From Acaryochloris marina MBIC11017 (GTDB lineage: Bacteria > Cyanobacteriota > Cyanobacteriia > Thermosynechococcales > Thermosynechococcaceae): a DNA stretch of 32,000 bases. Location of the stretch: the NCBI RefSeq assembly GCF_000018105.1, contig NC_009925.1, forward strand, positions 2,070,001 to 2,102,000, written 5' to 3'. How positions within the stretch are numbered: position 1 is the stretch's first letter; every line of letters starts with the position of its first letter. The notes beneath the pieces were generated by a model. That model saw nothing but the letters and a program-made list of their open reading frames with translations. It did not search any database and had not been told where the DNA came from. The position numbers were made by a program, and so were the translations under genes. Below are positions 4,635 through 22,105 of the stretch, in pieces.

Positions 4635-5912
4635 CTACTGGATGGCCTGTCTCGCCATTGCGATCGCACGGTCTTTCTGGGGATCTTGACCTTGGGCATA
4701 GGGGATAGGGAAGGGCACGACAACATCTGGCGTCACGCCTACCCCCTCTAAGCGAACCGTTTTATCGATATACACATCACTCACTGCAACGTATAGCAAA
4801 CTTTGATCTGGCATCAGATAGGGACGTCCAGCCACCACTGCCCCCGCCGTGGGACTCCCGACAACGGGGCCAATCTCATATTGCTGAAAGCCATAGGCCA
4901 AAATTTCCTTGGCGCTGCGACTGCCTTCATTTACGAGCATCACGACAGGCTTATCCCACTGTCCCTGGTAGGTCGAGGTGGCCCCATGCCTTTTAATACT
5001 GGTCAAACTGGGCCCTCTAGCCGTGAACAGATGAAGTGCCGTCATCGGATCTCCGCCCCAACCATCTCTTAAATCAAGAACAAGGGCATCGGCATTCTTC
5101 AAACGACCATAAATCACTTCATCTTCTAGCTCTTGCTGATGCTGGTCTCCAGCCAAGGACCAAACATGGATATAGCCAATGCGTTGACCATCCGTTTCAA
5201 TTACCTGCACACTATTAGCGATGGCTTCGACAAACATCTGGGTGCAATCGAAGCGCTTCGGCGTTACTGTGATGGTTTGTTGATCGTTAGGGTCTGCCGT
5301 TCTTTGAATTCGCACCTTGATGGGTTGGTCTGCTTTGCCCTTAAACGACTGAATCGCCTGAAAAGGTTGACCTGCCACATTCACGATTTGGTCTCCCACT
5401 TTGAGACCTGCCTTGGCAGCTGGACTGCCTTCAAAGATAGTTTTAATAAAAGTTTTGTCTTGAATCGCCTGGGTGACAATACCAATGCCTTCGTACTGAA
5501 CCTTTCCCTCAGGAAACGTGGATTTGAGCTGAGTGCGTAATTCTTTAATGCGGGGATAAAAAATACCCAGTACCTGATAGTAAGCAGGTTCATCCACGGT
5601 AAACAGGTGAGTATGAGAGGTCTGCAGCCGATCCAGCATCTCGTTGATCGCCTCAGCTTTTTCTGCCCGAGATGATGCCTTGGCTACCTGGGACTCATAT
5701 TGCGATTTCAAGGCTGCCCAGTCTAAACCATTGAATTCCGGATCATAAAAATTTTCATTGACGGTGTTCCAAACCGCATCCAGCAAGGCTGGCTGTTGAG
5801 AAGAAACAGAGGACATCGACCCCTGAGCCAACCACAATGCCAGCCCAGCCGCGAAAAAAAAGCTTAGAAGATGGCTTCTATAAAGCTTCAATTTTTCAAA
5901 ACCAGTCTTCAT
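4635..5912 (-). CDS. S41 family peptidase with PDZ domain (C-terminal processing / tail-specific protease-like)
   Basis: 425-aa ORF with a signal peptide, a PDZ-like segment (IFEGSPAAKAGLKVGDQIVNVAG) and an S41 core (LVLDLRDGWGGD ... LVNEGSRSAKEILA). Confidence 0.85.
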   Translation of the reverse strand: MKTGFEKLKLYRSHLLSFFFAAGLALWLAQGSMSSVSSQQPALLDAVWNTVNENFYDPEFNGLDWAALKSQYESQVAKASSRAEKAEAINEMLDRLQTSHTHLFTVDEPAYYQVLGIFYPRIKELRTQLKSTFPEGKVQYEGIGIVTQAIQDKTFIKTIFEGSPAAKAGLKVGDQIVNVAGQPFQAIQSFKGKADQPIKVRIQRTADPNDQQTITVTPKRFDCTQMFVEAIANSVQVIETDGQRIGYIHVWSLAGDQHQQELEDEVIYGRLKNADALVLDLRDGWGGDPMTALHLFTARGPSLTSIKRHGATSTYQGQWDKPVVMLVNEGSRSAKEILAYGFQQYEIGPVVGSPTAGAVVAGRPYLMPDQSLLYVAVSDVYIDKTVRLEGVGVTPDVVVPFPIPYAQGQDPQKDRAIAMARQAIQ

Positions 5913-5988
5913 GATGATGGGGCTCGTCTACAATGGGCTGCATTGCCAAGATGGCTATTGATCGCCATTCTGGTGTAAGCCGGATTTA

Positions 5989-6032
5989 GAGTTCCCCACT
6001 ATCCCAGGCATTTTGGGAGTTCCCCACTATCG
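5989..6032. repeat. Exact 15-bp direct repeat gagttccccactatc x2, 14-bp spacer
   Basis: The copies lie at 5989-6003 and 6018-6032, in the region between the Q/R-rich ORF end and the S41 peptidase start (5912). Confidence 0.9.
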
Positions 6033-6329
6033 TTTGATCGGTCGCTGTTGTAAGAACCGCTTACGCTCAATATCTCGATGCTGCTGCCTTTGTTTGAGTT
6101 GCTGCCTAAATTGCTGCTGCCGTTGATTTAAGAACTCATCAACTTGTCGATGTTGATTCAGCCGGAGTTGGCGATGGAACTTTAATTGTTGTTGTTGCAG
6201 CCCTTGCTGGAGAAGAGGTTGCTAGTGCAGTTGGTGAGGATTGCGCAGGGGGTGGGCAAGCAGAGGAAATGACACTCCCAAAATAATAGGAGACGCCAAC
6301 AATACACTACTGAAGCAAAATGCTTTCAC
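6027..6329 (-). pseudogene. Small signal-peptide plus Q/R-rich ORF interrupted by one in-frame TAG
   Basis: Hand translation from GTG 6329 gives MKAFCFSSVLLASPIILGVSFPLLAHPLRNPHQLH-TAG(6224-6222)-QPLLQQGLQQQQLKFHRQLRLNQHRQVDEFLNQRQQQFRQQLKQRQQHRDIERKRFLQQRPIKR, with a stop at 6029-6027. Both halves are in the same frame. Confidence 0.3.
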
Positions 6330-6450
6330 TGAACTGATCTCTGCCCCTAGTGTAGCGAGTTTGAGGCCCGGCTAACCCGATACTGATACTGTCTTTTTGA
6401 TTCGAACCCCCTCCTTTGGGTCTTCGGAGTCCCTCTTCAAAGCACTCAGG

Positions 6451-8220
6451 TCATTCACCAACATCCCGAATATCGTGAATATTCCAAGTGACTTTCCCCA
6501 ATGCCGTATATTGGGTTCCTTCAAAGTTATTACGAACGGCTGCTAGGGCCAACGGATTTATTAAGTATATAAAGGGCAAGTGTTCCTGAGCAATTTGTTG
6601 AGTTTTGGCATAAATGGCTTTCCGTTTGGCCTCATCTAATTCCTGGGCTCCTTCGATATAGAGATCGGCTATCTCTTGCTCCCAGTCACTCACGGTAAAG
6701 CCTTGAATCGGCTCACTAGGAGGCTGAGGTTTTTGGTTAAACATATGCAATCCCCCTTCTGGGGACCAGACATTCGCGCCAGTATTTGGCTCCAAACTGC
6801 CAGTCAACCCCAACAAGGCGCAATCCCAATCGAGGGAGTCATCTAATTTATCCACCATTGTGTTGAAGGCGATGGGGGTATAGTCCACCTTCATACCAAC
6901 TTTGGATAAGTCCTGTTTAATCTGAGCACCTAAGGTACTGCCTGCGGGTGCCATCAGCGTAAAGCGGACTTTGTTACCCTGATCATCCAAAAGCTGTCCT
7001 TGTTTGTTCGTTTTAAAGCCCGCGTCTTGGAGTAACTGTTTGGATTTCTGGAGATCATAGTCGTATACCTTCAGCCCCTCTTCTGGGGGCAGGTAATACG
7101 GGCTTTGTACAGAGATGGGAGAATTCTGGGTCAAGCCTAAGCCTTGGTAAGTATTGGCGAGAATCCGTTCCCGATCAATGGCATAGGCCACTGCCTGCCG
7201 AAATTTAACGTTGTTAAACCATCGGGATTTGATGGGATTGACTAGGGGCTTATTATTTCTGCGGCCCCGATTGAGGTTAAAGAAAACGAAGGTTGTACCA
7301 AAATCGGGCCCGCCTTCATAGATGGTAAAGTTTCCAGACTTTTCTTCCCGCTTTAAAAGAGAAAACGTACTGGCCCGCACCCCCACTGAGTCTAAGCCCC
7401 CGGTGCGGAACTGCAGTAAGGCCGTATCAGGGGATTCAACAATTTTCCAGATAATGCGCTCAATGTTACCGTTCGCTCGACCCGGAATTTGATAGCGCCA
7501 ATAATTGGGGTTGCGTCGAAACACAACCCGTTGATTGGTTTCGTAGCGTTCCAGTTGATAGGGACCGTTGACGATAATTTCTTTGGGGTCTGTATCCACA
7601 CCCCAAGCCGAAATAAACTGAGGATTGCCTTTGCTATCTGGTGTATCCACCAATTTCTTGAGGGCATGAGCAGGCAGAATGCTGATTGCGCCTGCCGTTC
7701 GCAAAAACGGGGCGAAGGGTTCAGGAATCGAAAACTCCACTCGCTGGTCATCTAGTTTTCTGACCTTGGGCAAGGCCCGATTTTTACCAACCCGAAGAAC
7801 ATCGCGAGTATCCGTGGGAATGGCCTCATTCAGATAGACATCGTTATAGGAAAAAACAACATCATCCGCCGTCAATGGAGTCCCGTCTGACCATTTCAGA
7901 TTCGGTCGGAGGGTAAAGATAATTTTGAGTTTATCGGCAGAGAATTCCCAAGACTCTGCCAGGGCAGGCTCAATCTCACCTGTTAGACCATTCTGGGTTG
8001 TTAATCCTTCATAGATTAAGCCGAAGACGTTGTTGGCTTCTTTACTTTGCGTGGAATTAAACGTTTTAGGGGCACTCAGTAGGGTATCGACATACTGGGG
8101 GACCCGTGCCGTTTGGGTTTTGAATTGGGAGAGGCTACAGCCAGGGAGTGCGATCGCAACTACCAATACCAAACTCCAAGCCACCCATCGTCGCAGAAAA
8201 GCCATACAGTTCACAGCCAA
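6451..8220 (-). CDS. ABC transporter substrate-binding lipoprotein, family 5 (peptide/nickel type), orphan
   Basis: 589-aa ORF with a lipobox-like signal (VVAIALPGCS). Sequence and length are typical of family-5 SBPs. There are no adjacent permease or ATPase genes. Confidence 0.9.
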   Translation of the reverse strand: MAVNCMAFLRRWVAWSLVLVVAIALPGCSLSQFKTQTARVPQYVDTLLSAPKTFNSTQSKEANNVFGLIYEGLTTQNGLTGEIEPALAESWEFSADKLKIIFTLRPNLKWSDGTPLTADDVVFSYNDVYLNEAIPTDTRDVLRVGKNRALPKVRKLDDQRVEFSIPEPFAPFLRTAGAISILPAHALKKLVDTPDSKGNPQFISAWGVDTDPKEIIVNGPYQLERYETNQRVVFRRNPNYWRYQIPGRANGNIERIIWKIVESPDTALLQFRTGGLDSVGVRASTFSLLKREEKSGNFTIYEGGPDFGTTFVFFNLNRGRRNNKPLVNPIKSRWFNNVKFRQAVAYAIDRERILANTYQGLGLTQNSPISVQSPYYLPPEEGLKVYDYDLQKSKQLLQDAGFKTNKQGQLLDDQGNKVRFTLMAPAGSTLGAQIKQDLSKVGMKVDYTPIAFNTMVDKLDDSLDWDCALLGLTGSLEPNTGANVWSPEGGLHMFNQKPQPPSEPIQGFTVSDWEQEIADLYIEGAQELDEAKRKAIYAKTQQIAQEHLPFIYLINPLALAAVRNNFEGTQYTALGKVTWNIHDIRDVGE

Positions 8221-8276
8221 CGTTTAACGCTGAGTCTGATGGTAGCGTACAAGTCTGTTGGAAATGCCAAGGGAGT

Positions 8277-9356
8277 TTAAGTCGGGTCAGCAGCAGGAGT
8301 ACTTTCCGTACTGACAGGCAAAACAGGGGGCTGGATATAATCTGTGGGAGGTTCTCCAGTTAAAGACTCTAGAAAGGCGACAATATCCCCAGCTTCCGAA
8401 TTAGAGAGATCTTTCCCCAACTGAGTGTTAGCCATTTGCACCACAGCCGCTTTTAGCGATTTGACAGAACCATCGTGGAAATAGGGACCTGTCTTCGCTA
8501 CGTTGCGCAAGGATGGCACCTTAAAGAGCATTCGATCATACTCATCACCCGTGACTTTGTAGCGTCCTTGATCCTCTTGATTCGGCCAAGGATTAACTCG
8601 ACCTGCTTTTTGATAGGTGTTACCGCCAAAATAGGTGCCGTTATGACATTGGGCACAGCCTGCATCCACAAAAAGGGTTAGACCCCGTTTTTGTTTGGCA
8701 TTTAAAGCGGTTTGATCACCTGCAAAATAGCGATCAAAGGGAGCAGGGGTAACGAGACCTCGCTCGAAGGCACCGATGGCTTGACCGAGGTGATCGTAAG
8801 TAACCGACTGCTTATCTTTGGGAAAGGCTGTGGCAAAGGCTTCCACATATTCCGGCATGGAATTGAGGACTTTCAGGACCTGAGCCTCGGAGGGCATCGC
8901 CATCTCCACCGGATTGAGAATCGGGCCTTTCGCTTGAGCTTCTACATCGGCAGCACGGCCATCCCAAAATTGGGCCACATGGGCAGCAGCGTTATACACC
9001 GAAGGAGAGTTACGCCCTCCGAGCTGCCCTTTATGGCCAGGGGAAAAGGGTTGGTTATCAACACCATAGTGATCAAGCTGGTGACAGCTATTGCAAGAAA
9101 TATCCTGATTTTTACTCAGGCGCTTTTCAAAGTAGAGACTGCGACCTAAGTCCACAAGTTCAGGATCGGCAGGTTGCTGCTGAGGGTAGAAATTCTCAGG
9201 TAAGGGAGGACCAAATAGTGCGAGGTTGGGAGCTTCATCTGCGATAGCAATTTCCGATCCGCGGAGGAATATCAGCAAGGTCGCTGCCACTACCACCCAA
9301 AACACAATAAATCTATGGATCTTATCGCGGTTGCCGTGATGCCATTGCAAAGTCAT
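8277..9356 (-). CDS. Di-haem cytochrome c peroxidase (CCP/MauG family)
   Basis: 359-aa ORF with an N-terminal TM/signal and two CxxCH haem-c motifs (CNSCH, CAQCH). Flanking sequence is typical of CCPs (FWDGRA, PSLRNV, GPYFHDG). Confidence 0.9.
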   Translation of the reverse strand: MTLQWHHGNRDKIHRFIVFWVVVAATLLIFLRGSEIAIADEAPNLALFGPPLPENFYPQQQPADPELVDLGRSLYFEKRLSKNQDISCNSCHQLDHYGVDNQPFSPGHKGQLGGRNSPSVYNAAAHVAQFWDGRAADVEAQAKGPILNPVEMAMPSEAQVLKVLNSMPEYVEAFATAFPKDKQSVTYDHLGQAIGAFERGLVTPAPFDRYFAGDQTALNAKQKRGLTLFVDAGCAQCHNGTYFGGNTYQKAGRVNPWPNQEDQGRYKVTGDEYDRMLFKVPSLRNVAKTGPYFHDGSVKSLKAAVVQMANTQLGKDLSNSEAGDIVAFLESLTGEPPTDYIQPPVLPVSTESTPAADPT

Positions 9357-9536
9357 GGGTCACTTCTCCTCTCAAAAACGCGCTGGGTCGCGAGCTGCGC
9401 TCCATCCAAATTTTATGAGTTAGCCAAAAGTGAATGACGACCCGTAAGAAAACGTGATAGCTCCATGACGTTTTGGCACAAAACCATACATAGCTTCGAA
9501 TTTCGCAAGAAAAGGTTGAACTAGGGAATCAATCCT

Positions 9537-9897
9537 TCAATATCGTCGTTCTTGAATCAGGGCATGTTCTTCGGGCAAGACCATTTTGGTATCGGACTCG
9601 ATGGGGGTATTTACCGTGGAAGCTTCGACGACCTTGGCTTGGCGCTGCCGTTGATCTAAGGTGCGGCTGCGGGCCTGCATAAACAGCCAAGAATCGGCTC
9701 GACTGTGACTGCAATTATATTTGGAGGCGGTGATCCAAGACCGCTTCTTCGGCTTCTTCGACGGACCCTAGCATTATTTATGCGATCGCATAAATAATGC
9801 CTGCATAACGGTCATACAAAGTCGACCGTGCGGCTTGATTCTGTTCAGCTACTTGGTGGATTAAAACCAAGTCCTCACTATTGTGTTGGACGGTCAT
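9537..9897 (-). pseudogene. ECF (sigma-70 family) sigma factor remnant: nonsense codon, frameshift and loss of region 4
   Basis: From ATG 9897 the frame reads MTVQHNSEDLVLIHQVAEQNQAARSTLYDRYAGIIYAIA-TAA(9780-9778)-IMLGSVEEAEEAVLDHRLQI. After a 1-nt frame change near 9713-9722 it continues YNCSHSRADSWLFMQARSRTLDQRQRQAKVV...EEHALIQERRY-stop. This is a region-2-like pattern (LYDRY..., EAEE.V, WL...AR.R.LD..R). No region-4 HTH follows. Confidence 0.6.
9771..9800. repeat. Perfect 30-bp palindrome centred on HIP1 (gcattatttatgcga|tcgcataaataatgc)
   Basis: Verified base by base: each 15-nt arm is the exact reverse complement of the other, and the centre is GCGATCGC. Confidence 0.95.
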
Positions 9898-10195
9898 TCC
9901 CGAGTTAAACTCACGTAATTCCAACAAATTTTTCGAGAAACAGATCCAATCATCAACTCCCAGCGTATACCCCTAAAGATTGGTGAATCAGAAGAAGTTA
10001 ACGGCGAAGTTTGTCCAACCTCGGACAAACTTCTGTTGCCCATTCTCAGTCCATTTTCAGCTTAATTTTTATGGAAATTGAGTGGCGTGGTTCATAGGAC
10101 TTGGCCTCTCGTTGGGCAGCATTGCCCCAGCCATGGACTCAGATCATGATGATGGTGCAACCCATACCAAGAGCCGCAATCTCAACCTGACGGAC

Positions 10196-15349: not shown

Positions 15350-15678
15350 AAGGAATTTGCTCTAAATAGTGAGAGTCACAATGCGTTGACTACAGGGTAG
15401 CTCGATCCCCATGGGAACTACTGGAAGAAGAGATTAAAAGACGCCGAGAATCATTTGAGAATGGGTCAGGCATTGCCCAAATCAATGGCTCTAGGTCCTA
15501 CTCAAACCCTCAAGTGGCATAACAGAATCGCACGGCTTGGAGTCGGTCACTTGCAAAAAGTGCGAGGCGTTATGGGTTAGCGAAGGAGGCTCTTTCCACT
15601 CATCAGAAATGGCCTAACATTCCAATGCTTCTCCCATTGAAAGACGAGCTAGTTCTTGAAGTTAAGCAAGCTCTGTTA

Positions 15679-16625
15679 TATAGCCCTACGAAACTATGTT
15701 AGTACTATTGATATAGAAGATATCCCTACATTAGTATGCCAGCACCCTATAGTTATGACCTTCGTCGTAAAGCCGTTGATGCCTTCAAGAATGGTGAACG
15801 GAAAGTCGATATCTGTCGAATGTTGAACATCAGCCGTAATACCTTGCATCTATGGATAGTCCGCGAAGAAGCTACAGGTGACTGTCAGGCGATTACCAAC
15901 TACCAACAAGGGGCTCGCCACAAGATCACAGATTGGGAGCGCTTTCGTGAATTTGCTCAAGAGCATGGGGGTAAAACCCAGGCCCAAATGGCTAAGCTAT
16001 GGGGGGATAATGTCACCCAGCAAAATATCAGTGATGCCTTGAGAAAACTGGGATTGAGTCGAAAAAAAGACCTATGGCTATCGAGAACGAGATGAAACAC
16101 AACGTCAAGCATTTATAGAACGATTACAGACCAAACACCCTCATCAGATCGTCTATGTAGACGAAGCGGGTATCGATAATCGAGCGGACTATCCTTATGG
16201 ATACTGCCCTGTGGGTCAACGATTTTATGACCTCAAATCAGGCAAGCGGACAGAGCGAGTCAGTTTTATTGCTGCGCTCAAAGAAGGCCAGTTATTTTCT
16301 CCCATGACCTTTGAAGGGTCTTGCAATCGGTTGTTATTCGAAGCGTGGTTACAGCAGAGTCTTATATCCCAGTTACAACTTGGCGATGTGATTGTGATTG
16401 ATAATGCCAGTTTTCATCATGGCCAGAGGATCGAAGAAATCGTAGCTGAAGCAGGCTGTGAGATTTGGTATCTACCGAGCTATTCTCCAGATCTCAATAA
16501 AATCGAGCGATGGTGGTTTGTGCTCAAAAACTGGATGAAGCAGCGGTGGGATGAATTTGATACCTTTCGTGATTGTGTGGATGCTGCTTTCAAAGAGCGT
16601 ACTAACATATATCCGTAGTGCTATA
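15679..16625 (+). mobile_element. IS630-family insertion sequence (~947 bp)
   Basis: 27-bp terminal inverted repeats with 23/27 matches: tatagccctacgaaactatgttagtac (15679-15705) versus the reverse complement of 16599-16625. The ends begin and finish with TA dinucleotides, and the element encloses a two-frame DDE transposase. Confidence 0.8.
15736..16618 (+). CDS. IS630-family transposase, two frames (HTH orfA 15736-16095; DDE orfB frame open from 16058 to 16618)
   Basis: The N-terminus MPAPYSYDLRRKAVDAF... is an HTH. The +1 frame reads KKTYGYRERDETQRQAFIERL...VYVDEAG...VIVIDNASFH...YSPDLNKIERWW (DDE triad). The overlap window contains an A7 run at 16062-16068. Confidence 0.8.
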
Positions 16626-17142
16626 CCTAACAATTACGCCTTTCTCGTGTTGTATTGATCTCAGATCTTAGAGGCTGTTTGAGAAGTTTTAGTACTCCTG
16701 CGCCAGCCTTCGAACCATGAGTCGAATCATCGCCACATATGCGAGCGCTTCAGTTGTTCTGGTCAAAACCTCATAATCTTTATTAAGACGTCGAGACCAC
16801 AACAACCATCCAAACGTCCGTTCTACAATCCATCGTTTGGGAACAACCTGAAACCCCGCTAGATTATCTGAGCGTTTGATCACTTCCAAGACATATTGAA
16901 AACGGTCCATTACCCACTTCATAAAAGCTTGTCCTTGATAGCCAGCATCGGCCCATATCCGAACTAGACGGGACAAACTCGCACCTTGGCGTCGAGCTTT
17001 CCAAAACAGCATTTTGGCCCCTCGTTGGTCAGAGATATTGGCAGCAGTGACCATCACCATCAAAACCAGCCCTAAAGTATCAACGAGCACATGACGTTTA
17101 CGACCTTTGACCATTTTCCCACCATCAAACCCAATCGAGTGA

Positions 17143-18276
17143 TACCAATTCCATATATGTGTGACTTGTATTATGGGAGTAGCGCGTTGCTGATACTTAT
17201 CCCTCATGCCCAGACCCTTACGAATTGATATCTGTGAAAGTGAAGACACACTCAAACGTTTATTACGTCAACAATCCTCCGGTCGTCGCAAAGAACGCTT
17301 GCAAGCCCTCTACTGGCTCAAAAGTGGTCAAGTCACCACTCGCATGGAGTTGGCAACCCTGACCGGACGAGGGGAATCCACGGTGTATCGCTGGATCAAA
17401 CTCTATAAATCAGGGGGATTACAGGCAATGCTGGAGATTCCTACCTCTCCTGGGAAGCCCCCCATGATTGGTGGAGAGGTCCTCGAAAAGCTGAAAGCTC
17501 GTCTAGCTGACCCCAGGGGCTTTGAGAGCTACGGGGCGATTCAACAATGGCTTTTAGATGAGTGTGGATTAGACGTACCCTACAAAACGGTTCATCAAAC
17601 CGTGCATTATCGGCTCAAAGCCAAGCTCAAAGTTCCTCGACCTCGCTCACGCAAGACAGAGGAAGCTCAACAACAAGCCTATTAAAAAACTTCCTCGTGT
17701 GATTGAGGTAATGACCCGCTATTTTGCCCAAGGACACCCAGTGCGCTACTGGTGCATGGATGAAAGCCGCTGGGGACTCAAGACACTCACGGGTCGGGTT
17801 CTAACGTTGCGGGGTGTCAAACCTGTGGTGACGGTACAGTGGCCCCGAGAGGCTTTCTGGCTCTATGGCGCTGTCGAACCTCTCACAGGAGACAGTTTCT
17901 TCTATCGGTTTTCTCATCTCGATAGTGTTTGTTTTGAGCGCTTCCTGGAGCAATTCAGCTTGGCGTTTCCCCAGAGTCTCAATCTGATGCAAATAGATCA
18001 AGCCGCAGCCCATATGGCGACTTGGGTTCGATGGCCTGAGAATGTGTTGCCGATTGTACAGCCGTCTCATAGTCCAGAACTCAATCCGGCAGAGCGATTA
18101 TGGCAGGACCTAAGAAAGCCTTTCAAAGGCAAAAACTTTGATTCTATTGGGGCACTGGAGACCGCTTTATTTGAGCATATCAATACCCTCTCCCAGAAGG
18201 TGGTGGCTTCTCTAACGGGATATTCTTATATCTTGGATGCTTTGACTATAAAGGTCACTCAATAAGTGAATTGGTA
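17143..18276 (+). mobile_element. Nested IS630-family insertion sequence (~1.13 kb) inside the IS5 transposase gene
   Basis: Imperfect terminal inverted repeats taccaattcc... (17143-) and ...gaattggta (-18276), with TA at both extremities. It sits exactly between the two halves of the IS5 transposase. Confidence 0.75.
17206..18265 (+). CDS. IS630-family transposase, orfA (17206-17685, HTH) and orfB (+1 frame, to 18265, DDE)
   Basis: orfA: ...STVYRWIKLYKSGGLQAM... orfB: ...YWCMDESRWG...MQIDQAAAH...HSPELNPAERLW (DDE). The orfB frame is open upstream across the orfA TAA stop (17683-17685). Confidence 0.8.
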
Positions 18277-18784
18277 TGACACCGAGGATTGCCGACTTTA
18301 ACCGATTGAGCATCGCAGATGGCGGCACTGGGACTTGGATGACGGTCTTCACTCACCCGCTCTTGCATGCGTAGATGCTCATTGATGTGGACCCAAGTCC
18401 CATCATCACGCCACCTTCGAAAATAGCTATAGACCGTTGACCAACAGGGAAAGTCATGAGGTAGCTGTCTCCACTGGCAACCCGTAACCACGAGATAAAA
18501 AATGGCATTGAGAACACTGCGCATATCAGTGGTGCGAGGTCTACCTCCAGGTTTAGCAGCAGGAATCAAGGGCTCAAGTAATTCCCATTGCAGGGTGGTG
18601 AGGTCGCTATCATATGCTGTAGGCATTGCTCTCTAGGTCCTGTCCAGTGTTTGTGTATTGACAGATTTAGTACCTTGAGAGCTTTACTCACTTCTCAAAC
18701 AGCCTCTAACGAACTGCGTTCAACAGGTTGCAGATCAAAGACAACGCGCATCATGGTATGTCGATTATCCTATGCAAGTGCTGG

Positions 18785-19162
18785 TTAGGCAGGAGTTTGC
18801 ATTGAGCTATATGACTGAATCAGGACTTCAGCAGGAATCCCCAGATTTTGATTTAGTTTCCGAATCATCTCTAATGTTAATGAGCGCTTTCGAGATAGTA
18901 TTTCTGACACCCTTGCTCGACTACCCAGGCAAGGTTCTAAGTCTCGACGAGATAAACCACGAGTATCCATGTAGTAGAGAATGGCTTCAATTGGATCAGG
19001 CGCTTCAATCGGGAAATGCCTTTCCTCATAAGCTTCTACTAGTGTACTGAGTATATCCAGTCGATCATATGCAGGGGTATTGGGTGGAGCATCAAACAGC
19101 ATCTCAATTTCTTTCAATGCTGCTTGATAATCAGCCTTAGTTCTAATTGGGCAAATTTCCAT
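18785..19162 (-). CDS. higA: Type II antitoxin HigA (HTH, YgjM-like)
   Basis: 125-aa ORF. The C-terminal segment GSRARVSEILSRKRSLTLEMIRKLNQNLGIPAEVL matches the HigA/YgjM pattern GSKS.VSRVLSGKRKLTLE..KL...GI. It starts 14 bp downstream of higB. Confidence 0.8.
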   Translation of the reverse strand: MEICPIRTKADYQAALKEIEMLFDAPPNTPAYDRLDILSTLVEAYEERHFPIEAPDPIEAILYYMDTRGLSRRDLEPCLGSRARVSEILSRKRSLTLEMIRKLNQNLGIPAEVLIQSYSSMQTPA

Positions 19163-19176
19163 ACCTATTCCTATCT

Positions 19177-19470
19177 TTAAACCGTTTCTGCATCTACTTT
19201 GTCGTACTCTGCATGAGTGCCAACGAATCGAATAAAAATAATGCTGATATCGTAGCGAATTGAAACAATCAGGCGATACGTATTTCCTTTGATATTGAAC
19301 ACAACACGGTTATTCGCAATGATACTGGCGTTACGATGAGCGGCTTTGATATCGGCTGGACTTTTCCAATCTGCATGTGATGCTTCGTAATACCAGTTTT
19401 TCAAGGATTCTTCAGCATCTGAGTGCTTTTCCCAAAAAGTTCGGAGGGTGCTGCGAGACAGGATACGCAT
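19177..19470 (-). CDS. higB: Type II toxin HigB (mRNA interferase, PF09907-like)
   Basis: MRILSRSTLRTFWEKHSDAEESLKNWYYEASHADWKSPADIKAAHRNASIIANNRVVFNIKGNTYRLIVSIRYDISIIFIRFVGTHAEYDKVDAETV follows the canonical HigB/YgjN pattern (...YRL...I.F....IF...VG.HAEYDK). I prefer the internal ATG at 19470 over the track start at 19512. Confidence 0.85.
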   Translation of the reverse strand: MRILSRSTLRTFWEKHSDAEESLKNWYYEASHADWKSPADIKAAHRNASIIANNRVVFNIKGNTYRLIVSIRYDISIIFIRFVGTHAEYDKVDAETV

Positions 19471-19639
19471 ACGTTTATAGTACATTGCTCCCAATATGGG
19501 AGCAAACTGCAAATGATTAAAAAGTGAGCCTTAACCTCAAGGATAACCGGGCCGGGAGTTGACGTGAACGAGCGTAGCGAGCCAGCCTGGCTGTTCCGGC
19601 TCCGGTTCATCCGTTTGTTATGTCGCCTTTCGGGTTATG

Positions 19640-19873
19640 TTACCATTCGACCAACGCATAGATGAACACAGGCTTTCTCGAACGAATTAAGGAAACAGCA
19701 TCATCGAAAGACTCGACACAATTTTGATTGTATTCGTCTGGTGATAGAGACTGAAGCACATCCCGACATTTATTGCCCACGATTATTGCAAACGGTTTTG
19801 AACATGATGACGGTCCGATATCATGCCACCCAGCCCGCAAAGCTTCTGTACCCGTCATCGGATACCCAGGCAT
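19640..19873 (-). CDS. Hypothetical small ORF, or frame-shifted C-terminal extension of the TIR gene
   Basis: This frame is open from 19987 to 19640. About 60 codons lie downstream of the TIR stop (HDIGPSSCSKPFAIIVGNKCRDVLQSLSPDEYNQNCVESFDDAVSLIRSRKPVFIYALVEW). Candidate starts are ATG 19873 and ATG 19858, both inside the TIR gene. I recognise no family. Confidence 0.3.
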   Translation of the reverse strand: MPGYPMTGTEALRAGWHDIGPSSCSKPFAIIVGNKCRDVLQSLSPDEYNQNCVESFDDAVSLIRSRKPVFIYALVEW

Positions 19874-20405
19874 AGATTGAATACCATCGGCCAAGATTGT
19901 AGCCATTGCCACGGTATTCCTCCGGAACGCCACCAGTGTGATACGAGGCGCTACCATCAATCTCCGTATAGGGCTGCCACTTACCATTTACCTTTTCATG
20001 GAGAGTTGCCGTAAGCCCACTATCGGAGTACGAGACGCCGACGTAACTGAGGGGATTGTACCCCTTGCTCTTGGTCTTTTGGTCACGACCTTTGATCGAG
20101 TTGATGTGGACAGCCAGTAGTTTGTTTCCTTGGCGGAAGCTCTTAAGTAGTTCGTATCGGACCCACGGACGTGCGTACGTTTGAGAACCGATGAGGACAC
20201 ACGTCACCGACGTATTGTTAACCGCTGCGTTGATAAGACGTTTGATCGCGACCGGGCCAGTCTTTTTCGCAAACTCCCATACAGATGCGTCAAAGAACCC
20301 AGCCGATTTGCGGTCAGGCTTCATGAGCCAGTGATTCCGAAAGACATTCGCGCGGAAGTCAATGACATCTTGGTAGTGAAAGCTAAAGAAAACGCGTTTC
20401 GCCAT
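19821..20405 (-). CDS. TIR-like domain protein (DUF1863 / Thoeris ThsB-like)
   Basis: 194-aa ORF: KRVFFSFHYQDVIDFRANVFRNHW...FFDASVWE...IKRLINAAVNNTSVTCVLIGSQTYARPWVRYELLKS...KLLAVHIN...KGYNPL...IYAWVSDDGY. This matches the DUF1863 pattern as I recall it (FiSyhy.D, W.d.S.We, ssvtvvLiG..T..r.WV.yEi), including the conserved Glu in WVRYE. Confidence 0.8.
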   Translation of the reverse strand: MAKRVFFSFHYQDVIDFRANVFRNHWLMKPDRKSAGFFDASVWEFAKKTGPVAIKRLINAAVNNTSVTCVLIGSQTYARPWVRYELLKSFRQGNKLLAVHINSIKGRDQKTKSKGYNPLSYVGVSYSDSGLTATLHEKVNGKWQPYTEIDGSASYHTGGVPEEYRGNGYNLGRWYSIYAWVSDDGYRSFAGWVA

Positions 20406-20434
20406 CCATATTCGCCTTGATGTCTAACTATAAA

Positions 20435-20492
20435 TTAGGAGGCAAATTTATTCTTAACATAAAATAAATTAACAGCTTATTTACCTCCTTAA
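20435..20492. repeat. Imperfect inverted repeat pairing an SD-like AAGGAGG with CCTCCT in the AT-rich leader of the TIR gene
   Basis: ttaggaggcaaat (20435-20447) versus atttacctccttaa (20479-20492; reverse complement ttaaggaggtaaat) shows one bulge and one mismatch. A competing inner stem is aatttatt (20445-20452) with aataaatt (20463-20470). Confidence 0.5.
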
Positions 20493-20672
20493 GCCAAGCC
20501 TTCTCTACACTAGCACCACAATATAAAGACCCAGTTTTACGGAAATTTTTCGATATGCAAAAATTATAGTTGATTGCCTAAAAAGAATATAGAAAAGGCA
20601 TTTTCGGTGTATCTGTCATACAGGAATGAAGAATGTTAATAGGCAAAATAAATAACCGTATAATTTTCAATA

Positions 20673-20885
20673 TCAGTTGTTATCAGGTACTCTATGCCAC
20701 CCCGCAAACTCCTTGTCCAAGTCCGTGATGTAATACGAACCAAGCATTACGAGTACAGTACCGAGAAAAACTATATGCAGTGGATCTGACGCTATATTCC
20801 CTTCCAAAACAAACGTCCTTCCCAAGAAATAGCCAAGCCCAAAGTTGGAGCCTTTCTTACTCTCGATACAATAGTGACAGTGCAT
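20673..20885 (-). CDS. Hypothetical 70-aa ORF; possibly a truncated remnant of a second ThsB-like gene
   Basis: MHCHYCIESKKGSNFGLGYF...LGSYYITDLDKEFAGWHRVPDNN. The end shares TTTGCGGG.TGG / FAGW with the TIR gene end. It lies only 13 bp from the divergent Uma2 start, so there is little room for a promoter. Confidence 0.25.
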   Translation of the reverse strand: MHCHYCIESKKGSNFGLGYFLGRTFVLEGNIASDPLHIVFLGTVLVMLGSYYITDLDKEFAGWHRVPDNN

Positions 20886-20898
20886 AGTCGTTCAACAT

Positions 20899-21477
20899 AT
20901 GACACTTTCACAGGCAGCCCTCACTCAACCAAATAACCATTTGTGGTCCGTTGCTAACTATCACCACATGGTCGAGGCAGGCATTTTAAGTGATTGTCAT
21001 GTAGAACTGCTCCAAGGCAAAATTGTCGATAGGACACCCGAAGGTCCACTTCACACCCATAGTGGTGAAGGCACCGCTCAGTTTCTCCGCCAACATCTTC
21101 AAGGACAGACATGGATCCGAGAGGCGCATCCGATTACCTTAAACACTTCTAAACCGGAGCCAGATCTTGCCATTGTTCGCTTACCCTGGTCCCAATATCG
21201 TCAGCGTCATCCAGACCCCAGTGAAGTGTATTGGCTGATCGAAATCTCTGACTCTAGCATAGCGATTGACTCCGGCTATAAACTCAAAATCTATACCAGT
21301 GCTGGAATCCCTGAATATTGGATTGTTAATTTACGCAAACAACAAGTCAGTGTCTATCGACAGCCTGAGTCAGAGCATTATCGTTCTGTAGAAACTTACC
21401 AAGATGGTGAGCTGACGCCCTTAGCCTTTCCAACGTTAAGGGTGTCTGTGTCGCTTTTACTCGCTCAAGAGGTCTAA
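20899..21477 (+). CDS. Uma2 family endonuclease (DUF820)
   Basis: 192-aa ORF: WSVANYHHMVEAGIL...VELLQGKIV...PEPDLAIV...WLIEISDSS...KLKIYTSAGIPEYWIVNL...VSVYR. This is the typical Uma2 / putative restriction-endonuclease fold pattern that is abundant in cyanobacteria. Confidence 0.85.
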   Translation: MTLSQAALTQPNNHLWSVANYHHMVEAGILSDCHVELLQGKIVDRTPEGPLHTHSGEGTAQFLRQHLQGQTWIREAHPITLNTSKPEPDLAIVRLPWSQYRQRHPDPSEVYWLIEISDSSIAIDSGYKLKIYTSAGIPEYWIVNLRKQQVSVYRQPESEHYRSVETYQDGELTPLAFPTLRVSVSLLLAQEV

Positions 21478-21481
21478 AGAC

Positions 21482-22105
21482 ATGGATAGCAGTCATCAGT
21501 TAGTCTCTCGACAGCGCTTCTCTTTTTTTTCCTTAGCCGTACAAGCCTATCGCCAAGGCAGGCTGGGGGACGTAGCCGCTTATAAGTCTGCAATATTAGG
21601 CACTCAAGCTTATCCAGAGATTGCGGACAAGCTCTCCAGATTAACAACCTGCTTTCCCACCATTGACTTGGCAGCCTTAAGAACCCTACCAGAAGGGACC
21701 TTTGGACAGATCTATGCCCAGCATATGGATGGGTGCCACCTAACACCATTGGACATTAGCGCAGACGTTATAGCTTCATTGCCAGACCAATCTTTGGGAC
21801 TGCGCTATACCCTGCTCCATGATGTATTTCATGTGCTGTTAGGATATGACACCAGCCTTGCCGGAGAAATGGGGGTATGGGCTTTTGTCGATGCTCAGCA
21901 CTATAGTCCTAGCTATCAGACAGCCGCCTGTCTGGCCCATTACTTATACCCTCTGGTCATTCCGCACCGATACCGACAACTACGCGCCATCGAGCAGCAC
22001 AGTCGTAAACTTGGACAGCAAGCAGCCTGCGTCATCGCTCATCCGCTTGAAGACTATTGGTCAGAACCTCTTTCTACGGTTCGTTCTCGCCTGGGGTTAG
22101 CATAA
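21482..22105 (+). CDS. Coq4-family protein
   Basis: 207-aa ORF containing HDVFHVLLGYDTSLAGE, i.e. the HDxxH-x11-E zinc-ligand motif of Coq4 (PF05019). It starts 4 bp after the Uma2 stop. Confidence 0.7.
   Translation: MDSSHQLVSRQRFSFFSLAVQAYRQGRLGDVAAYKSAILGTQAYPEIADKLSRLTTCFPTIDLAALRTLPEGTFGQIYAQHMDGCHLTPLDISADVIASLPDQSLGLRYTLLHDVFHVLLGYDTSLAGEMGVWAFVDAQHYSPSYQTAACLAHYLYPLVIPHRYRQLRAIEQHSRKLGQQAACVIAHPLEDYWSEPLSTVRSRLGLA

Follow-up and report, generated by a model that had tools for sequence, protein, structure and literature searches.

On sequence evidence, the 194-codon TIR gene found in the analysed stretch of Acaryochloris DNA (32,000 nucleotides, referred to here as the window) is an intact ortholog of thsB, the Thoeris sensor gene of Bacillus cereus MSX-D12, and none of the effectors that accompany its relatives was detected in the window. 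The gene is thus one ordinary component of a defence system already known, and not a new system; its family is the best-characterised among ThsB proteins. The reading we prefer, at about even odds, is that of a sensor half that was acquired recently and is stranded without an effector in cis; the main rival to this reading is a trans-acting sensor that serves an unlinked effector.

The thsB gene and its surroundings

The encoded protein matched the Pfam profile PF08937 (ThsB_TIR; E=1.6e-16, 61 bits against a cutoff of 21.2) and, over its full length, the PADLOC models ThsB1 (PDLC00431; 1e-52, 176.8 bits) and PDC-M50B (9.8e-54). Neither thsB nor its neighbours matched any NCBIfam model. In a phmmer search of solved structures, residues 1-193 aligned to residues 2-192 of PDB entries 6LHY/9B7D (E=2.8e-69), the ThsB of B. 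cereus MSX-D12, “cyclic ADP-D-ribose synthase ThsB1”. Identity to ThsB of the B. cereus group was about 56% over the full length (tblastn). The motif WVRYE occupies residues 81-85 of the window protein; its E85 does not vary among the aligned family members and, in the phmmer alignment, falls on the catalytic glutamate of the B. cereus protein (BcThsB). The first-pass annotation, which had described a 194-aa DUF1863/TIR protein with a conserved Glu in this motif and had proposed an HMM search as a check, was right on both the domain and the residue. BcThsB consists of a TIR domain with an extra C-terminal antiparallel beta-sheet domain (PMC7272460). The window protein resembles this type I ThsB in being collinear with it over 193-194 residues, in possessing both domains, in Glu85 of WVRYE and in the N-terminal FFSFHYQD.

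Conservation of the window protein was assessed against 192 relatives. At 63 of the 65 highly conserved positions (at least 93% conserved) the family residue is kept, the two deviations being V22F and D179A, and the overall conservation score is ordinary within the family (77th percentile). In the dN/dS comparison of the gene with its relatives dS was saturated. The gene is intact and nothing suggests decay.

Exactly the same protein is encoded on the chromosome of Acaryochloris marina MBIC10699 (AP026075.1), and another 13 assembly contigs carry it with the same neighbours. The GenBank model AM10699_47390 is shorter (167 aa); it begins at Met28 and omits the 27 N-terminal residues (MAKRVFFSFHYQD..., window 20325-20405). 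Since these residues are conserved across all relatives and also form part of the ortholog's crystal structure, position 20405 is the true start. The gene should accordingly be annotated as thsB and with this start instead of that of the shorter model. The features of the locus are listed in Table 1.

Table 1. Features at the thsB locus, with positions in the window
Feature	Position	Strand	Description	Evidence
Strain-variable cargo segment	15470..20420	.	Holds IS nest, HigBA and thsB; reaches from the gnd upstream region to the native AT-rich DNA	
IS nest	15736..18626	.	IS630-family copies and a split IS5-family transposase	Pfam domains of L001 genes; ORFs
IS630-family copy	15736-16618			
IS5-family transposase	16689-17255 (DDE_Tnp_1 part), 18255-18626 (DUF4096 part)	-	In two parts	
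Second IS630-family copy	17206-18265		Interrupts the IS5-family transposase	
HigA-like HTH antitoxin	18785..19162	-	125 aa	PF01381 E=2.7e-4; PADLOC PD-Lambda-2_B 9.5e-45
HigB toxin	19177..19512	-	GenBank start 19485	PF09907 E=2.4e-32; PADLOC PD-Lambda-2_A 4.5e-43
thsB-HigB spacer	19513..19820	.	Holds the tail of the frame-offset ORF (19640-19819), unsupported as a gene	
thsB	19821..20405	-	Putative 194-aa TIR sensor/cyclase, ATG start; TIR domain at about residues 1-105, then C-terminal beta-sheet domain; Glu85 within WVRYE	PF08937; PADLOC ThsB1; phmmer to PDB
Cassette-specific leader TCAAGGCGAATATGG	20406..20420	-	15 nt, from the native junction to the thsB ATG	L103 alignment
Native AT-rich intergenic region	20421..20898	.	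Includes the 70-aa ORF (20673-20885)	blastn/alignment to L103
Uma2-family nuclease-like gene	20899..21477	+	Native neighbour	PF05685 E=4.8e-30

The neighbours are those that had been named from the sequence: HigBA, a frame-offset ORF, a 70-aa ORF, Uma2 and three IS elements. The frame-offset ORF (19640-19987) overlaps thsB. Its 60-codon part outside the gene had no Pfam, PADLOC or NCBIfam match and no tblastn match in the related loci, and the longer 115-aa version matched only a different reading frame of other thsB genes. The order of a RelE-like HigB toxin followed by an HTH antitoxin is that of a HigBA toxin-antitoxin pair. A full PD-Lambda-2 system was considered and rejected, as the 125-aa HigA-like protein covers only positions 3-123 of the 402-position PD-Lambda-2_B profile; this is a plain HigBA pair. 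HigB and HigA were never found beside relatives of thsB (about 100 loci), and HigBA is co-resident cargo and no Thoeris component. The Uma2 gene also matched the PADLOC candidate model PDC-S03; it occurs as fragments in strains that lack thsB, and ORF clustering of 80 genome loci placed no Uma2 cluster beside thsB relatives.

Effectors beside ThsB relatives and in the window

The ThsB family (3747 matches) is unusually uniform, nearly all members being 194 aa long. The best non-self matches to the window protein showed 65-75% identity and came from Bradyrhizobium, Acidobacteriota, Nitrospira, Symbiobacteriia and others, with no cyanobacterium among them. In order to identify the partners of these relatives, ORFs around 80 genome loci (L007-L086) were clustered and the cluster representatives were scanned. 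ThsA, a protein of about 478 aa with SIR2 and STALD domains (PADLOC ThsA1, 2.7e-178), stood beside 28 of the 80 relatives, usually abutting thsB, as in type I Thoeris. About 24 relatives (23 and the reassigned locus L030) had an abutting gene for PDC-M50A, a multi-TM protein of about 139 aa (PADLOC 7.4e-57), in a type V-like arrangement. SLOG cluster-3 (SLOG3) or TIR-SLOG proteins together with extra TIR genes, the type III arrangement, were found at 15 loci, whereas 10 of the 80 loci, all with adequate flanks, had none of the ThsA, PDC-M50A and SLOG effectors. The closest metagenomic relatives (72-75% identity) were similarly mixed in their partners: P0016, P0009 and P0046 are type I, P0019 is type III, and P0005 has a gene for a 145-aa partner downstream of thsB. 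The closest of them, P0007, carries a solo thsB beside DUF932, PDDEXK and RadC genes and a transposase, on a contig that is mobile-element-like.

Across phyla the sensor is strongly conserved (55-75% identity), yet it occurs with three effector types or with none. That its partners are modular has already been published and is not new: one TIR cluster serves type I, type IV and type V systems, the last with a DUF2270 effector and with 3'cADPR as the signal, in a survey that left out stand-alone TIRs (Yirmiya et al., bioRxiv 10.64898/2025.12.03.692087). Our literature search returned nothing relevant on PDC-M50, on Acaryochloris together with Thoeris, or on orphan or solo ThsB.

In the window, PADLOC found no ThsA, PDC-M50A or SLOG protein among the ORFs tested and returned 0 matches for ten further large ORFs. 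The search for an effector covered the 32-kb window out of a 6.4-Mb chromosome plus plasmids. Comparison of all members of the ThsA, PDC-M50A, SLOG3, TIR-SLOG and extra-TIR clusters with the window by tblastn gave only noise (best E 0.05-0.2); the best value was 0.083 for ThsA and 0.085 for PDC-M50A, the latter in another part of the window than thsB. Profile HMMs were built from the effector clusters and used, with filtering disabled, to search 15400-21000 translated in all six frames. All E values exceeded 0.8 (ThsA E>2, PDC-M50A E>3), and SLOG3 and TIR-SLOG were negative both by tblastn and by HMM. Only a single TIR ORF is present in the whole window. By neither tblastn nor profile HMM were effector remnants detectable near thsB, and the 308-bp spacer between thsB and HigB is too short for a gene of the PDC-M50A type (about 135-160 aa). 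The earlier statement that no ThsA-type partner is present in cis was thus borne out for the window. When ThsA was compared with PLSDB plasmids by tblastn, Acaryochloris was not among the top organisms, which were the only ones listed.

The locus differs from each of the known arrangements closest to it. Unlike the thsA-thsB operon of type I Thoeris in B. cereus MSX-D12, the window gene has no adjoining thsA, lies in a cargo segment with IS elements and HigBA, and belongs to a cyanobacterial host. The likeness to PDC-M50, in which A is a small membrane protein and B a TIR protein, lies in the sensor, which matches PDC-M50B as well as ThsB1; moreover, two of its candidate nearest neighbours in the tree, L010 and P0005, have a small membrane partner directly downstream. 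As sister of the window protein, the candidates received neighbour-joining bootstraps (per 100) of 29 for L010, 16 for P0005 and 10 for P0007. PDC-M50 resembles type V Thoeris, which combines ThsB with the DUF2270 protein ThsF (Yirmiya et al., bioRxiv 10.64898/2025.12.03.692087), and the link of PDC-M50A to Pfam DUF2270 (PF10028) is marginal, with 2 of 23 members matching and a best E of 0.028. In contrast to PDC-M50, the window has neither a small multi-TM partner abutting thsB nor a PDC-M50A-like ORF or remnant elsewhere. The likeness to type III Thoeris, which has several TIRs and a SLOG effector, lies in the 15 of 80 relatives and P0019 that sit with SLOG cluster-3 or TIR-SLOG proteins, but no SLOG protein or additional TIR gene is present in the window.

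Strain variation and acquisition of thsB

Syntenic regions of other Acaryochloris genomes were reached via Coq4 homologs. The core genes are collinear among the lineages, whereas the interval between gnd and Coq4 differs in each. In blastn comparisons with Acaryochloris sp. CCMEE 5410 (L097) and with another strain (L103/L104), homology to the window breaks off at 15467-15472; it begins again at 20421 for L103 and at 20864 for L097. The interval of CCMEE 5410 (5695-9383) contains transposases and a broken Uma2, and that of L103/L104 contains four small unknown ORFs (L103 7807-9318; 171, 139, 39 and 96 aa in L103) that have no Pfam or PADLOC match. Both thsB and HigBA are absent from the syntenic interval of CCMEE 5410 and of L103/L104, which is what the strain comparison proposed in the first-pass annotation was meant to reveal. 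Contigs encoding the identical Uma2 protein included no variants without thsB. The gnd-Coq4 interval is a hotspot at which cargo is swapped, since each of the three Acaryochloris lineages has contents unrelated to those of the other two.

As the first-pass annotation had judged by eye, the thsB gene is rich in NCG codons, which make up 19 of its 40 NCN codons, whereas 13 core genes together have 275 among 1328 (Fisher p=2.4e-4), and its CpG observed/expected ratio is 1.19 against 0.66-0.95. Judged by its absence from the syntenic intervals, by this codon and CpG bias and by its nearest relatives, which at 70-75% identity are non-cyanobacterial, thsB is horizontally acquired, as had been proposed. 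One argument made for this transfer has to be withdrawn. The roughly 270 bp of AT-rich DNA upstream of the gene were correctly described (20406-20672, 267 bp, 30% GC), but the AT-rich region, with a GC content of 0.30-0.37, aligns to 9319-9947 of the thsB-less strain L103 (blastn, 74% identity). The 70-aa ORF likewise matched L103/L104, both thsB-less (tblastn 1.5e-20). Since a strain without thsB shares the AT-rich DNA and the 70-aa ORF, both are native and lie outside the acquired piece, and the base composition upstream is no evidence of transfer.

The edge of the acquired piece can be placed closely. The L103 alignment loses similarity directly after a shared ATAGTTAGACA, which leaves 15 nt to the ATG of thsB, and in L103 a different 96-aa gene begins 28 nt past the same ATAGTTAGACA. 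Direct reading of the 15-nt leader revealed zero stop codons in any frame, so that no other gene closely preceded thsB; a lost partner, if there was one, would have been downstream. A second ATAGTTAGACA is missing from the opposite end of the variable segment, and nothing therefore points to a site-specific cassette system. The native AT-rich region probably supplies the promoter for the cargo gene downstream of it. A simple promoter/terminator scan gave no match to a minus-strand promoter around thsB.

The block comprising Coq4, Uma2, thsB and HigBA (window 18785-22105) is the same but for 2 nt in the assemblies of two A. marina strains (L001 8301-11621 compared with L002), whereas the flanking core genes SulP, malQ and ACP_PD differ by 2-4.6% between the same two assemblies. 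This contrast suggests a recent recombinational spread of the block, which would have left little time for decay.

Possible roles of a lone ThsB

Purified BcThsB was monomeric and did not cleave NAD+ in vitro (PMC7272460). The E85Q exchange in ThsB abolished Thoeris defence, ThsB combined with dead ThsA gave no defence, and the two proteins functioned from separate promoters, even across species (bioRxiv 10.1101/2021.01.06.425286). A Thoeris TIR that is expressed alone builds up signal on infection (bioRxiv 10.64898/2025.12.03.692087). By analogy with the ortholog, ThsB would sense a phage cue, whereupon Glu85 would turn NAD+ into 3'cADPR; in complete systems this signal would activate the adjacent effector through a SLOG or other pocket, the effector being, in the relatives, ThsA (a SIR2-SLOG NADase, type I), PDC-M50A (type V-like) or a SLOG protein (type III). 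The window gene, as lone horizontally acquired cargo that sits with HigBA and IS elements in the gnd-Coq4 hotspot, would, if expressed, produce signal on infection and yet not abort the infection by itself; it would signal into nothing unless a receptor is encoded elsewhere. Its intact state would be explained by an acquisition or spread too recent for decay.

How such a stranded sensor might arise is illustrated by three relatives in which the effector is being lost beside an intact ThsB and which show a route to orphans. In Afipia birgiae (L021 9084-10189) ThsA has an internal deletion and a frameshift, in a Bacillus sp. (L072 686-2112) it is frameshifted, and in B. fungorum (L078 6207-6428, 13793-15076) about 75 N-terminal ThsA codons are left and an intact second ThsA lies 6.7 kb off. 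The suggestion of a decayed Thoeris locus is therefore plausible as history, although no debris is detectable in the window by tblastn or profile HMMs; as no debris is visible, thsB may also have arrived alone. In either case the window locus should not be counted as a working Thoeris system, and it provides a clean example of signalling defence systems coming apart.

Not all lone ThsB genes appear to be on their way to loss. Eight relatives (L009, L011, L012, L013, L014, L025, L026 and L039, with thsB at about 8001-8582 in most) from Acidobacteriota, Nitrospira, a betaproteobacterium and Pyrinomonadaceae form a clade in which no effector could be recognised within 3-8 kb of the gene and no neighbour is common to the members. 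Its members are 72-83% identical to one another (neighbour-joining bootstrap 60/100), with dN of 0.09-0.16 and saturated dS. These sequence comparisons suggest that selection can maintain a ThsB gene on its own, and they speak against “useless remnant” as a general rule. The window gene resembles these orphans in being a single full-length thsB with the conserved residues, but its protein branches outside their clade (inside in 1 of 100 bootstraps) and is 68-71% identical to the members. We consider it doubtful that an effector-less canonical ThsB, here as in the orphan clade, is a maintained functional state, in which 3'cADPR would be addressed to unlinked or unknown receptors or the protein would have an effector-independent antiviral or regulatory role. 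If lone ThsB were indeed maintained, the sensing modules of Thoeris would spread, and be under selection, independently of the killing modules, and if such genes are functional, surveys that discard stand-alone TIRs undercount TIR signalling.

Among the alternatives to a stranded sensor half, a split but working Thoeris is the one that survives best, and we judge it possible, if on the whole unlikely. The lone thsB would then act as a sensor in trans, its 3'cADPR activating an unlinked effector on the chromosome or a plasmid and so widening the range of phages recognised. The function of ThsB and ThsA from separate promoters, the two loci L078 and L085 in which a ThsB relative is 6.7-7.6 kb from an intact ThsA, and the existence of a conserved effector-less clade are all consistent with this. 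On the other hand, there is no effector within the 32-kb window, and the prior for an unlinked partner is low, since only about 8% of genomes have a Thoeris system, whatever its type (bioRxiv 10.64898/2025.12.03.692087).

A self-sufficient solo TIR, either an NADase triggered by infection or an enzyme whose signal acts directly on a host or phage target, is improbable in our estimation. The 10 partnerless loci of 80, at which the gene is nevertheless intact and conserved and which include one moderately supported clade, argue for it, as does the solo P0007 on its mobile-element-like contig. Stand-alone NAD+-depleting TIR effectors are, however, self-associating enzymes with intrinsic NADase activity, and the monomeric, inactive state of the 56%-identical B. 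cereus ortholog makes such a mode of action unlikely for the window ThsB, so that the stand-alone NADase put forward in the first-pass annotation is disfavoured. The same ortholog gave no defence without active ThsA, and the position of the window protein outside the orphan clade also speaks against self-sufficiency.

A pairing of thsB with a non-canonical partner next to it, be it the 70-aa ORF, the 60-codon ORF, HigBA or Uma2, which includes the “unrecognised small effector” proposed earlier, has proximity only and the PADLOC matches of Uma2 and HigBA (PDC-S03, PD-Lambda-2_A/B) in its favour. It is essentially excluded, since the 70-aa ORF and Uma2 are native genes that also occur in the absence of thsB, the 60-codon ORF lacks homologs and was not seen with any thsB relative, HigBA occurs at 0 of about 100 loci of thsB relatives, and no candidate contains a SLOG, Macro or other nucleotide-sensor domain.

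The lone ThsB genes of two Nitrospira loci, L013 (2049-3986, 4833-5789) and L026 (7128-7910, 8960-10114), were observed amid other TIR proteins, namely a TIR-TPR protein of 645 aa and a TIR-receiver protein of 384 aa. They are also flanked by related proteins of 260 and 318 aa, the former with weak matches to Mrr_cat and to nucleoside-deoxyribosyltransferase-like proteins. Together these genes could represent an undescribed TIR gene set.
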